From Lingula anatina (lineage: Eukaryota > Animalia > Brachiopoda): a stretch of DNA of 64,000 nt. Within the stretch, counting starts at the first letter, position 1; the number at the start of each line of letters is the position of its first letter. Both the position numbers and the translations under genes were made by a program. Below the pieces are notes generated by a model. It was not told the DNA's origin and made no database searches. It worked only from the letters and a program-made list of their open reading frames with translations. Location: contig CM120641.1 of NCBI GenBank assembly GCA_051362555.1, positions 34,850,401 to 34,914,400 of the forward strand. The letters are read 5' to 3'. Shown here in pieces: positions 1,150 to 22,100 of this stretch.

Positions 1150-4100
1150 GTGAGTAAACACTTATCATGGCTAAAAAAAATTAGAGTAATACTAGAAAGC
1201 AGTATTAAGACAAAGTAGACCTCCACCAAGGCAAGTCATTTCTCATTTCAATTTATTAAATAGTTAATCAATAGATAAGTGGCTAAAACAAATTGATTCC
1301 AAGTTAGCCAATTTATGGCCTATCCTGTACATTTTATGAAAGTCCTTCCATAACCATGAACTTTTTGCGTTAGGGTGTTAACTAGCAAACCAATAAAGGG
1401 CAAAACAGAACCGTCTAGGCTACGCTCTAACAGTGATCTCTCCAAGGCCTTATTTAAAGGAAATAGCCCTTGTGATCTCCAGTCTTGGGTTTGTGACTGC
1501 AAGTGCAGACTTGATGGTGCAAACATAAAAATTGTCAATTTTATGGAATCCCAGGAGGGCCAAGCGAAAAAAAAAATTTAAAAAAAAAAAAAAAAAAAAA
1601 AACGAAAAGCGAAATTGAAAAAAAAAAAAAAAAAAAAAAACGAAAAAAAAACGAAAAGCGAAATTTGCTAGATCGCGTGTAATCTCGCGAGATCGCGCGT
1701 AATCCCGCGTGGTCGCGCGAAATCCCGAGAGATCAATCTGTTTCATTTTCAAAATGAAATTGAAAAAAAAAACACGAAATCTCGCGAGAAAGTGCGAGAA
1801 AAAAAAAGCATGGCGAATGAGGCAGGGAGTGGTTGTTCAAAATGCCGACATTGCACCGAACATGAGGAAGATGTCATTTTTAAAGGGAAAACGAAACCAA
1901 ATGTCAACAAAGGACCGGCCCCAGTGCGCGGGATGCAAATACGTAAGTTGTTGACTATCTTTAATTGGAGTAATCAATGGTCTGGTGCAATGTAGTCACG
2001 AACATGTAGGCCTACAGTAGTGTGTGGCGCGTAATTAAAATCAAATCACTGGGCTCACTGTAAAGAAGGGACATTTCGTAAATTCCGAAGGTTCATTGGT
2101 TCGAAAATTTGTAACATTTTCATTGTTTTTTTAATCAACGGTTCATTGGTCCGAAGGTTCTATAGTGAACATTTGGACCATTGAACCTTCGGACTATCGC
2201 TACGCCCACGATCATTTTGCCCATTTAATTCTGTTATTTTTTATTAATGACATGCGTATGTTTTCTTCATTTCAGCACTTGATGATCAGCAACCATCGTG
2301 TAGCTGGGGAAATATTTCTTTTAAAAGAAAACAGAAATTTACATTCAGGGATGGGAAGAAGAAACGCACAGAGGTACGTATGTATATGTTTTGTACAATG
2401 TTTTTTAAAGCAATTGTTTCTAATCCCCAACATAAAAATTATTTACTGAATCTGTCAAAGATTTATCAAGTATCATCAACTTAGCGCTGGCAGCACTCCT
2501 GGTTTTGGTCCTGACCCTTCTCTATGGTTCTTTTGTTCTGGTGACTGATATAATTAAGTTACAGTTACAGCTCCTCCTCTCACAAGGGCCTGGGTCCGCC
2601 CCTGACTATCACACCATACCTTCATTCCAACTGAAAAATGCTCCTGTTGGTGCTACTACAATACCATGCACATTTAAATATATCTGATTGTATTAAATTT
2701 TCATTTTAGACCATCACTGTGACAAAGCTAAAAAAAGTAACCTCCAAGTCTGGTAAAATTAAATTTGACATCATTAGAGATGAAGATGGGATACCTAATA
2801 GAGAGGTAATACCTTATTGATTGTTGAGCAGTCAGTTCAGCAATAAAGGGTATAAGTTCAACCGTTTGGGACATCAGCTTAACATAATGAGATAATTATT
2901 AATTGTATTGATAACATTAAAGCCCAACATAAATAGAATGTTAATTAATTAATTAATTAATTAATTAATTAATTAGGGCATTTGCCTAAAGTGGTCTCCT
3001 ACCTAATAAAATGTATATTACAACTTTGTTTCATTGCTGTAAGCATCAATTTCATTTTTGATTTTACAATAAAGAATTGTTATCTTTCAGATCCCACTGA
3101 ATGGTCCCTACAGCCATTCTGTAATACTAGACTCTTGCTGCCAGTATTTCGAAGGAAAAGACACCAAATCCTTGATGGAAACTGGGAAGAGGCCCTTCAT
3201 TATGGGAAACAAAAATGGCCCGAAGTTAAATGAGGAAAACCTGGGCAATGTGAAGAAGATTTTTTTTGTTTGTAATGATGTGAGTTATCTTTTTTATATA
3301 TCAGTTAGTATAACAATGTTGTTAACAATGATATTTGTTTTTGTATATGTGGACTTAAAAAGAAAGAATGAATTTTATTATTTGAAGTTACTATCAATAA
3401 AGAGTCATTATTGTGCTGTTTAATGAGCCAGTTTATTGGTACAATGTTGTTTTTCTTTTTAAGGCTGATAATTCAAGTACCAGCTCAAAGATGTCTTGTG
3501 TAAGTAACGCTTGTATGTATATTTTTATTGACTACATTCTTTTAATAATTAAGAACTGACCACCCCAACAGTCATATGATATTACCAGGGAACATCAATT
3601 ACTACACAAAAATATGTCACTGGAGAACACTGTCTGTCTAATCTCAAGTTATTGACAATGCCAAGTTAATTTAGCTTGTTCTACAGGAACCCAGATATGA
3701 CAGTTAAGGTTAGTGTCAACAAGCGTCTTATGGTAAAGTTGTTGACATTCCCTGGTGATATATAACTGTTTGGGTGGCCTGAAGGAATTGACAGATAACA
3801 CAATATTATGTGTTTGTACATGTAGCTAATATTTTTTTGAAATAATTTGAAAGGTTTTAACAGATTTTCAAAATATGACAACTTTTTAAACTGCATGCAT
3901 ATTCTTTTTAGAGCTACATTGGAGAACTGTGGTAATGTATTCTGAAGTAAATTGTTTTTTTATTTCACTGGCTTTTGATGTAATTTGCACCTGTAATGAA
4001 AGTTTTGCTGAGCCGACTAGACGGTACCACAGTATCCTGTTAATTCAGGATTCGGGACACAGTGGGCCTTCTGTCTCTCTCCCACAGCACTGTAGATCGT

Positions 4101-19100: not shown

Positions 19101-22100
19101 GCACACATACATTATAAGGCAATTTCATTTAGTATGCTCTTTTGTTTATTACAAAATGGATGTGAATTTTTTCTGAGATTTCTCTTCCAGTGCCAATTAC
19201 ATATGAATAACAGTCAGAATTACAGTGATATTTCATAATTTGTAGCCCAAAGATAAGCTTTGATAATAACACTGGAGATGTGTGCTTCAACATTTAAGAT
19301 AAATTATACAGGCTAAATCCACCTAATTCAATTTTATGATTTATATTTTATATTTTCTTAATTAAATCAACTTCTGTTTCATGCTCTCATAAAATAACTA
19401 TTATTTGAATTGACAAATTGAAGCCCAAGAATTAAAAAATATTTCAATTAATATCATATATGAAACTATTTCAATTCTTATTGTATTTTAACACAAATAA
19501 CTTGGTAGATCCATGTTGAAAAAGTCAAACACTGAATTTGCTCACCAAATTTGAAGTCGTGATCCATGGGCAAGTGCCCACAGTTGACACAATGTCTGAT
19601 GGTTCTAATTTTTCGGTATCCTGGACATTGACATTGCCTTTTGTTACAAGCACCGACGACACTCTACAAACGTAAATTACAAATGAAAAGCATTACTTTC
19701 AACCTTCCTATCCTTAACGGGAACTGTACACGTGTGGTTTAATAATTGTTTCGAGGAAGTCTAATGAAAAATACTGTAAATTTATGTACATGTATGTAAT
19801 ATAAGTTTAATGCCTAATGAAGACGTTTGCAAAACCAGTCAGTGTCACTGTGTCAGGAAAGGCGGCATATTTATTTAACCGGTGTTCTAATACTAGTAAT
19901 AGTAAAGAAATAAGACTCAAGAGGACACTCCGACTCGTCCTTGATTCACTAATAATACTATACGTCACACTATCATCTGCATAAAGAATAAAGAGAAAAC
20001 AACTTACGTGCAATATTTTATCACATCCGCATGATTTACAAATGGGAATGTGAGCCTGTTGTTCATAGTCCGTGCAATGTTGGCATTTTAAACACATCGT
20101 GGCTTCTTCCGCCATGTTTCTATTCTCGCAATTTCTCGTGAGATATCGTGATTTTTTTTTTCTCTTTTTCTTGATTTCCTTTTGAAATAAACTTTGCTCG
20201 GTATCGCGGGATTTCACGTGGCCACGCAGGATTACGCGCGATCTCGCGGGAGATCGCGCGATATTGCATTTTTTTTTTTTTCAATTAAAGTTAAAAAAAA
20301 ATTTTTTTTTTTTCAATTTAATTTTTTTTTTTTTTTTAATTTCACTTTTTTTTTTCAATTTAATTTTTTTTTTTTAATTTCACTTGGCCCTCCTGGGATT
20401 CCATACAATTTACCAGTATGAAAAGTTCTGGCAGGTTTTGTTACGGTAATGTGCCAAACAGTTAAAAAATTAATTATCTTCTCTGGGCGCAATCATTTAG
20501 ACCAAACGTCAAAATTATGTGACAGAATTTTTTCTTCCGATTGTTTGACCATATCGTCAGCAAGACTCGGCAAATTTTCAAGCCAGTGAAACAGATGCTG
20601 CATGCCTCGTCCCTTTGTCAGTTGTTGTGTCTTCGATGGCTATCGTCAATTGAACCCAATACTTAACCTGAAAGCGAGACGCACTTGCCATTTCTTTTGT
20701 GCCCTCTGACAATAATAATACTTATAATACAGTAGTCATACAGTTTGTCGGTCCCGTAGCTGGGGGACTGGGGGGGGGGGGGTGATCTGAAGAATAAAAA
20801 TGTCTGCTCTGGGTTCAAATTTGATATAGGTACACGATGTACTTGGTAAGTATGGTGGCCTGGAAGTGCCATATCATAAGTTTAATTTCAGTTAAATAAA
20901 TATTATGGCTCTTATGTTTAAAATAACAGAAACACTGATTGATGTCTTTATCAGAAGTATTGATTTTATTTTCATTAATTTTTTTAGTATACTTCTCTAT
21001 GTTGGACAAAATTTTTTAAACAGAGGTTATATCTTGCCTTCTGGAGGCAAAATAATATATTGTTTCCATATATGAATAAATAGTTTATTTGCTAGCTAGG
21101 TCAAAGGCATTTTAAAATGCACTTGTACTGAAATTAATTATTAATAAAATGTTTTTCAGCTGTCACAAGTTTGTCCTGCAATTTTGACAGTGGCAGCTGT
21201 GGTTTCATTACTGATGTTGACACAAGCAGTGTCAACCACATGTGGAACTTTTTCAAGGGCAGCACCCCGAGTGGTTACACAGGTCCTTCCAGTGACCACA
21301 CTTCAGGCAGTGGATACTATTATTATGCAGAAACTTCAAATAAAGTGAGTCTTCAAAAGATTGTTGAGTTATGACTCTGATTGAAATTGCAGTTTATGTA
21401 ATTTTATTCTATGTGACACAACTACCCAGCGGGCAAAATATGTTGTTTAACATTGAAACAACGTTGAACCATAACGTTGATAAGACGTTGGATAAACATT
21501 GGATTTGAAAGTTGACTCAACCTCAGATAACAACGTTGTATCAATGTCAGAGAACAACATTGTATCAACCCCACTTGTTAGACAACATTCTTGCATGAAA
21601 AGACATTGAAATGACCTGAGGGTAGGGTATAAAAGTATATGGCCTTTAAGTTAAAATTTCTAAGGCTTAGATTAATATATATATATATATATATATATAT
21701 ATATATATATATATATATATATCACAAAGTCACAGTCACCTCAACCTGTCTATGTATAACAGGTTACCAAGAACTGTTAACTTTATTAATTCACTCCATC
21801 ACATTTACAGCAACTTATTCATCCTAGTGTTAGCTGACCTTGCAAGGAATTCAGTTTATTAGAATATATTTCTGAATAACAAGTTAAGAAAATTCACTAG
21901 TTCACTAAAGACACAGAACAACTGTCCCTTTTACTTTTAACACTTTTTTTTACTATTTTGATAAAGTTAGTTATAGTATTGATAAACAAAGTATTACTTT
22001 TTCAACAATTAATATTTTAAAATATAATCCATGTCTGCAAGGTTGTGTCAATGACCAAAATACAACGTTGAGTCAACGTCATATTATGACGGTGTTTTGA

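Follow-up and report, generated by a model that had tools for sequence, protein, structure and literature searches.

A 64,000-nucleotide stretch of the Lingula anatina genome (assembly GCA_051362555.1, contig CM120641.1, forward-strand positions 34,850,401 to 34,914,400; hereafter the window, numbered from its first letter) holds at positions 1542–20405 a complete ~19-kb transposon of the cut-and-paste type (18,864 bp). It carries a DDE transposase gene and a protein-kinase gene, which are convergent, with stop codons separated by 1,777 bp. By every feature tested the element is a member of IS3EU/GingerRoot, differing from the known members in its second gene. An earlier note on this DNA, made from its letters alone, had proposed perfect 23-bp ends and the 6-bp target-site duplication (TSD) CAATTT at these boundaries, and comparison of ends and flanks agreed. 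The features of the element are as follows.

1536–1541: TSD CAATTT, left (flank comparison)
1542–1564, + strand: left end, 23-bp perfect inverted repeat, starting TATGG (end alignment)
1542–1865, + strand: left imperfect terminal inverted repeat (TIR), 71% identical to the right arm, entering kinase exon 1
1810–13655, + strand: kinase gene, 17 exons, 727 amino acids (aa), all introns GT-AG, stop-free; exons 1810–1942, 2276–2373, 2710–2805, 3091–3279, 3464–3499, 7147–7224, 7595–7666, 7768–7851, 8034–8091, 8768–8872, 9120–9212, 9787–10053, 10235–10270, 10525–10699, 10907–11024, 11428–11532 and 13215–13655
2276–3279, + strand: kinase exons 2–4, a basic stretch and a ~100-aa domain without assignment, at the position of the conserved N-terminal domain in other IS3EU second genes
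4238–5525: host repeats nested in kinase intron 5 (4238–4443 and 5350–5525), 74–87% identical to other copies in the window
9787–10053, + strand: probable Ig-like domain exon, directly before the kinase domain (weak; Pfam Ig_7, E = 0.11)
10525–13655, + strand: eukaryotic protein kinase domain, four exons, all catalytic motifs
11818–12751: host repeat nested in the last kinase intron, including tandem 146-bp units, with relatives at 55454–56075
15433–20115, − strand: DDE transposase gene, 11 exons, 469 aa, Cys-rich N-terminus, D204/D263/E304; exons 20115–20008, 19663–19546, 19023–18933, 18483–18408, 18100–18003, 17886–17793, 17466–17289, 16848–16709, 16607–16542, 16085–15884 and 15671–15433
20063–20405, − strand: right imperfect TIR, entering transposase exon 1
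20383–20405, − strand: right end, 23-bp perfect inverted repeat, finishing CCATA (end alignment)
20406–20411: TSD CAATTT, right (flank comparison)

Terminal repeats and the two genes

The two ends match perfectly over exactly 23 bp, and beyond this the arms are 71% identical across ~340 bp. When the 64-kb window was scanned for inverted-repeat pairs, with low-complexity seeds left out, the element ends were the sole pair combining a perfect inverted repeat of at least 15 bp with a 6-bp direct flank. No further copy of the terminal 23-mer, allowing up to 5 mismatches, was found elsewhere in the window. Both start codons, at 1810 (+ strand) for the kinase and 20115 (− strand) for the transposase, fall within the ~340-bp imperfect repeat, ~270–290 bp inward from the homologous ends. 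The coding parts of the two arms aligned with a score of 52 (maximum in 500 shuffles, 35), and the first 20 residues of kinase and transposase are 55% identical. Judged from these alignments, kinase exon 1 is homologous to transposase exon 1, inside the terminal repeat.

Both genes proved to be spliced and free of stops, as the earlier note had read them. The transposase, with GT-AG at all introns and zero internal stops over 469 codons, matched Pfam rva_4 (E = 9e-35) and, weakly and far below those models' cut-offs, IS3 (E = 4e-6) and IS481 (E = 3e-5); Integrase_Zn (HHCC) was absent from its Pfam match list. Among 12 aligned relatives, D204 and D263 of the DDE triad are invariant and E304 is at least 90% conserved. 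These matches, with TAYGG..CCRTA ends and the 6-bp TSD, uphold the proposed IS3/IS481-like transposase of IS3EU type. The protein differs from Lingula anatina XP_013415562.1 at 2/469 residues. Several RefSeq isoforms are annotated at this locus, which suggests transcript support, given RefSeq model-building practice. Isoforms P0001/P0007 and P0004 carry two versions of the last exon, with 4 differences; the window holds a single copy of that exon, so the two versions reflect a local duplication or an assembly artefact in the other assembly.

The kinase differs at 1/727 residues from the L. anatina UniParc record P0009 (727 aa), from which exon 7768–7851 and the acceptor at 8768 were placed. 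The RefSeq model, XP_013415561.1 (P0008, 513 aa, labelled 'MAP3K1'), begins at Met215, and its scaffold and that of the RefSeq transposase are equal in length; residues 1–214 are taken as coding on the basis of an open frame across seven exons and of P0009. Another frame of exon 1, which would complete a second CxxC, was dropped as it hits a stop in exon 3. The protein matched Pkinase (E = 3e-45) and retains the Gly loop (GxGx), the VAIK lysine, the alphaC glutamate, HRD, DFG, DIWSLG and APE. With this full motif set it is a complete eukaryotic Ser/Thr protein kinase, as had been proposed, and it is predicted to be catalytically competent; the adjective 'signalling', which the earlier note had also applied, is a label by similarity to which no ortholog corresponds. 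The frame is intact over all 17 exons despite the host repeats that landed in introns.

Residues 40–450 of the kinase had no match in the ESM Atlas; for residues 50–176, mollusc/cnidarian clusters without names and one SAM-fragment cluster came up at 0.90–0.91, a lead only. The models that AlphaFold2 built without an alignment were unusable, with mean pLDDT values of 32 and 42.

Second genes of related elements

Kojima and Bao (2023, PMC10045372) unite IS3EU with GingerRoot and characterise the elements by 6-bp TSDs and TA..TA ends; IS3EU elements encode two proteins (PMC8232023, citing Kojima 2019). The window element has TATGG..CCATA ends, the 6-bp TSD CAATTT, an integrase-like DDE transposase and two proteins, and so resembles IS3EU/GingerRoot in its TA..TA termini, TSD, transposase and gene number (PMC10045372, PMC6839031). 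It differs in being 18.9 kb long and intron-rich and in encoding a conventional kinase; the second gene of animal elements is given no identity in the available text of PMC10045372 and PMC6839031. In that of Cerbin 2019 (PMC6839031), which describes GingerRoot elements carrying host gene fragments, the word 'kinase' does not occur.

The claim that a transposase–kinase element was undescribed went too far, as kinase cargo itself has precedent in print. TET+ fungal IS3EU elements, of rust fungi and Tuber, share with the window element TAYGG..CCRTA ends, 6-bp TSDs and a kinase opposite the transposase (Kojima 2025, PMC12730594). Theirs, however, is an alpha-kinase, with a TET/JBP gene between; the window kinase is of the Pkinase type and, with E values up to 1 allowed, matched no alpha-kinase family in Pfam; the window element showed no third gene. 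The TBE transposons of the ciliate Oxytricha, also DDE elements, have a dedicated 57-kD zinc-finger/kinase-domain open reading frame (ORF) that is under purifying selection and whose function in TBE is unknown (PMC4724952); TBE accessory proteins left DNA binding unchanged in E. coli (bioRxiv 10.1101/2025.03.17.643836). TBEs differ in that their transposase is of the Tc1/mariner type, their termini are telomeric, they carry three ORFs with the kinase ORF oriented like the transposase, and they sit in a ciliate germline. The window element has neither such a transposase nor such termini or ORF number, and its assignment to TBE was rejected.

REP9/Styx elements of Zymoseptoria (PMC8232023, PMC10853768) resemble the window element in a transposase related to that of IS3EU, a 6-bp TSD and genes beyond the transposase; one REP9 gene acts on the host, whose reproduction it alters (PMC8232023). 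They differ in having four genes, none of which the available text describes as a kinase. A 2012 meeting report mentions DNA transposons that carry conserved proteins of host origin, presumed to regulate transposition (PMC3520738). A full-text literature search found no published conventional kinase or HECT ligase in IS3EU, although one may be described in Repbase, in the 2019 review by Kojima, in subscription papers or in supplements to preprints, all of which lay outside that search. New against the literature searched is the conventional kinase in the IS3EU second-gene slot; new against the earlier note is a terminal repeat that extends into the first coding exons of both genes.

Related transposases were found in TACGG..CCGTA elements with 6-bp TSDs. 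In a metagenome scan, the best 80 of 243 transposase matches formed 54 groups, all essentially intronless. Among groups with at least 1.5 kb downstream, 15/23 had a convergent HECT-like ORF; 8 of the 15 groups seeded the profile and are independently Pfam-positive. The loci L047 and L008 are complete elements with TACGG ends and 6-bp TSDs. These HECT-ligase elements resemble the window element in superfamily, in the convergent slot and, at several loci, in Cys-rich N-termini on both genes; they differ in their catalytic domain, a HECT E3 ligase. At L047, L055, L029, L078 and L023 the transposase and/or the HECT gene opens with a CxxC..CxxC zinc ribbon, echoing the Cys-rich starts of the window genes.

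A scan of genome contigs gave 11 loci, 10 of them distinct (L088 was counted once with L086), from records labelled as metagenome-assembled genomes (MAGs). We take these contigs to be eukaryotic DNA because most of the transposases on them are spliced. A convergent spliced kinase was present at 5/10 loci and a HECT gene at 0/10. Twelve further transposase loci from the same assemblies (L125 and L133 overlap loci already counted) yielded six kinases, one kinase-type remnant, two HECT genes and three loci with nothing assigned. A convergent conventional kinase thus accompanies 11/22 related transposase loci, from three eukaryote-like MAG-labelled assemblies and two short contigs, which extends the transposase–kinase linkage beyond Lingula and supports the proposal of a kinase as dedicated second gene. 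At L082, L084, L126 and L130 the kinase lies inside a complete element with its own TIR ends and its own 6-bp TSD. The 111 ORFs beside nine unassigned transposase loci had no kinase, alpha-kinase or HECT match. Neither the 57 pattern matches in viral contigs nor the 16 from a genome scan with a HECT-type second gene included a relative.

The kinase-type second genes of the related loci have an N-terminal domain and an Ig-like segment in common; at L083, L084 and L087 the Ig-like segment precedes the kinase. Aligned over 84 columns, the N-terminal domains of kinase-type and HECT-type second genes scored 24.7 (maximum in 80 column shuffles, 16.1), with an hhalign E of 0.0017 and a probability of 15%. 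A candidate correspondence between residues ~74–172 of the window kinase and the ubiquitin-like domain of HECT-type second genes was not confirmed, with phmmer, hmmsearch, hhalign and shuffles all negative, although these tests were also too weak to join some HECT-type domains with each other.

Several of these loci have unusual structures. The IS3EU element at L086 4415–13283 (TACGG ends, TSD CACGCA) is one large palindrome with a transposase gene per arm and a duplicated second-gene N-terminal domain at its centre. L082 (8939–16624, and 17326) has two right ends, each followed by the same TSD sequence, AGTTAT. A 439-kb contig of a bacterial MAG record (G001, C10) is dense with intron-rich IS3EU elements of kinase and HECT types (L082, L090, L091, L122–L125 and L127–L129), and is likely eukaryotic host DNA in a bacterial bin.

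Kinase ancestry and copies in Lingula

No close relative of the kinase was found among 1.84 billion representatives: the top 149 other hits reached 33–38% identity over the kinase domain, and none matched the N-terminal half. Hits were ranked by whole-protein score; although this gives multi-kinase proteins an advantage, any close relative with a single kinase domain would have placed above them. Three of eight hits looked up carried names, and these were bacterial or plant; the best Protein Data Bank matches were STK11 and STK24 (E = 1e-25). No host ortholog was found among the representatives searched, and the RefSeq reading as a MAP3K1/MEKK1 ortholog was rejected, with no listed hit exceeding ~38% identity across the kinase domain.

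In a 30-row kinase tree the six element kinases require three origins (one origin in 0% of bootstrap trees), and in the transposase trees the kinase-bearing transposases are not a single clade. L082 and L091 fall among receptor-like/IRAK-type kinases, L083, L084 and L087 form one clade, and the window kinase pairs with two unnamed tandem-kinase proteins (96/84). Forcing the window kinase together with L083/L084/L087 was not rejected (p-AU 0.155). Placement is weak, as the reference set lacks named animal kinases. A further 7 reference kinases were dropped from the tree; the automated splice models of L087 and L091, used in these trees, are partly wrong (that of L091 has no catalytic loop). The window kinase and L083, L084 and L087 have two introns in common: a phase 2 intron that follows the alphaC helix and a phase 0 intron that follows the catalytic loop. 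The transposase trees comprise fetched relatives only, without Repbase IS3EU sequences, and one leaves out 18/48 rows. Because the kinases need three origins on the tree, the enzyme slot seems to have been refilled repeatedly. The pairing recurs, but in the kinase tree the window kinase stands apart from the other element kinases.

Within Lingula, partial transposase models on two other scaffolds differ from the nearest isoform at 2/172 and 7/194 residues. The transposon family thus probably has several copies, and the simplest reading is a resident family that was active at least fairly recently; the element itself may be recently mobile and autonomous, as the earlier note proposed. The kinase, by contrast, appears once in the available Lingula annotations: its cluster has two members, both matching the window gene, and a word-based search returned 1 hit among 502 candidates.

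Around the element, exons of a multi-MAM-domain gene begin ~730 bp to its right (21138–38062, + strand; Pfam MAM, E = 8e-8 to 3e-13), with a reverse-transcriptase fragment among them (35985–36260, − strand; RVT_1, E = 4e-11) and a WSC exon at 51347–51655. No exon was assigned in the left flank. The reconstructed empty site (1323–1541 joined to 20412 onward, − strand) has a 100-codon open frame across the junction, the left part of which has no Pfam match.

Possible role of the kinase

We consider it probable that this is a complete IS3EU/GingerRoot transposon whose kinase likely serves as its own accessory enzyme, predicted to phosphorylate the transposase or host proteins and so to tune jumping or escape from silencing. 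By analogy with the DDE family, the transposase would cut at the TAYGG ends and paste with a 6-bp staggered cut. Because both genes start ~270–290 bp inside homologous ends, they probably have the same kind of promoter and are expressed together. Comparison across elements suggests a second-gene slot for protein-modifying enzymes (HECT ligase, alpha-kinase, several conventional kinases) whose occupant has changed more than once. As an accessory regulator, the kinase would have as its targets the transposase or host proteins of silencing, repair or immunity. Within this reading, host silencing, repair or immune proteins are the slightly favoured target; the transposase or transpososome falls a little short of even odds. 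An accessory role is preferred over chance capture because unrelated protein-modifying enzymes occupy the same slot in the same orientation.

Several observations pull the other way. Available Lingula annotations show one kinase locus only, whereas two further scaffolds have partial transposase models. In the tree the window kinase stays separate from the other element kinases; its N-terminal half has no match to the element-derived N-terminal profile, the element-derived Ig profile matches exon 9787–10053 only weakly (E = 0.05–0.14), and the two shared intron positions are frequent among animal kinases. In the transposase trees, the neighbour of the long-branched window transposase is a chytrid protein (95/95), rather than the kinase-bearing transposases. 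Among the best 80 of 243 metagenome matches, kinases accompany 0/80 transposase loci, and 9/11 kinase loci, with all four complete ones, stem from one assembly.

Some of these points would suit a host gene caught by chance in a single copy and carried as a passenger without a role for the element, namely the lone kinase locus and its separation from other element kinases, as would the host gene fragments known from GingerRoot (PMC6839031). We nevertheless regard such capture as unlikely: kinase exon 1 lies within the terminal repeat and is homologous to transposase exon 1, the convergent slot is the same as at 11 other loci, no host ortholog was found among the representatives searched, and 17 exons stay in frame though host repeats entered the introns. 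Slightly less likely still is an old, fixed and now immobile insertion with both genes kept for the host. Such domestication would leave perfect ends and TSD, near-identical partial transposase models on two other scaffolds (2/172 and 7/194 differences) and the absence of orthologs in other species to be explained, even if the near-identical gene pair on one RefSeq scaffold, the several transposase isoforms, the 71% identity of the repeat arms beyond 23 bp and the host repeats in introns are in keeping with it. We give little credence to a selfish maintenance factor, in which the element's own kinase acts on the host cell (toxin-like or as a signalling decoy) and not on transposition: judged by motif, element kinases elsewhere are IRAK/Pelle- or TKL-like, and they cluster with a plant receptor-like kinase, and a REP9 gene affects host reproduction (PMC8232023), but HECT ligases and kinases in one slot fit a shared targeting module equally well.

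Beyond the accessory enzyme preferred here, we tentatively suggest a broader scheme, which may well prove too general. The IS3EU second gene would be a modular writer of protein modifications, pairing a conserved N-terminal targeting domain with an exchangeable enzyme (HECT ligase, alpha-kinase, or TKL-like, IRAK-like or STE-like kinase). Its transcription would start, like that of the transposase, from the terminal repeats, the two being transcribed together, and its product would modify the transpososome or host defence. Lingula would represent a further independent kinase acquisition, and many orphan invertebrate kinases and HECT genes would be transposon genes.

To our knowledge, eukaryotic cut-and-paste transposons seldom carry regulatory enzymes of their own. 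The IS3EU second gene has been without an assigned function, and an intact, compact transposase–kinase pair makes the question directly testable. That unrelated modifying enzymes have replaced one another repeatedly in a single slot points to selection for a function, not chance capture. RefSeq calls the window kinase MAP3K1, and transposon kinases of this sort would inflate counts of invertebrate kinomes.

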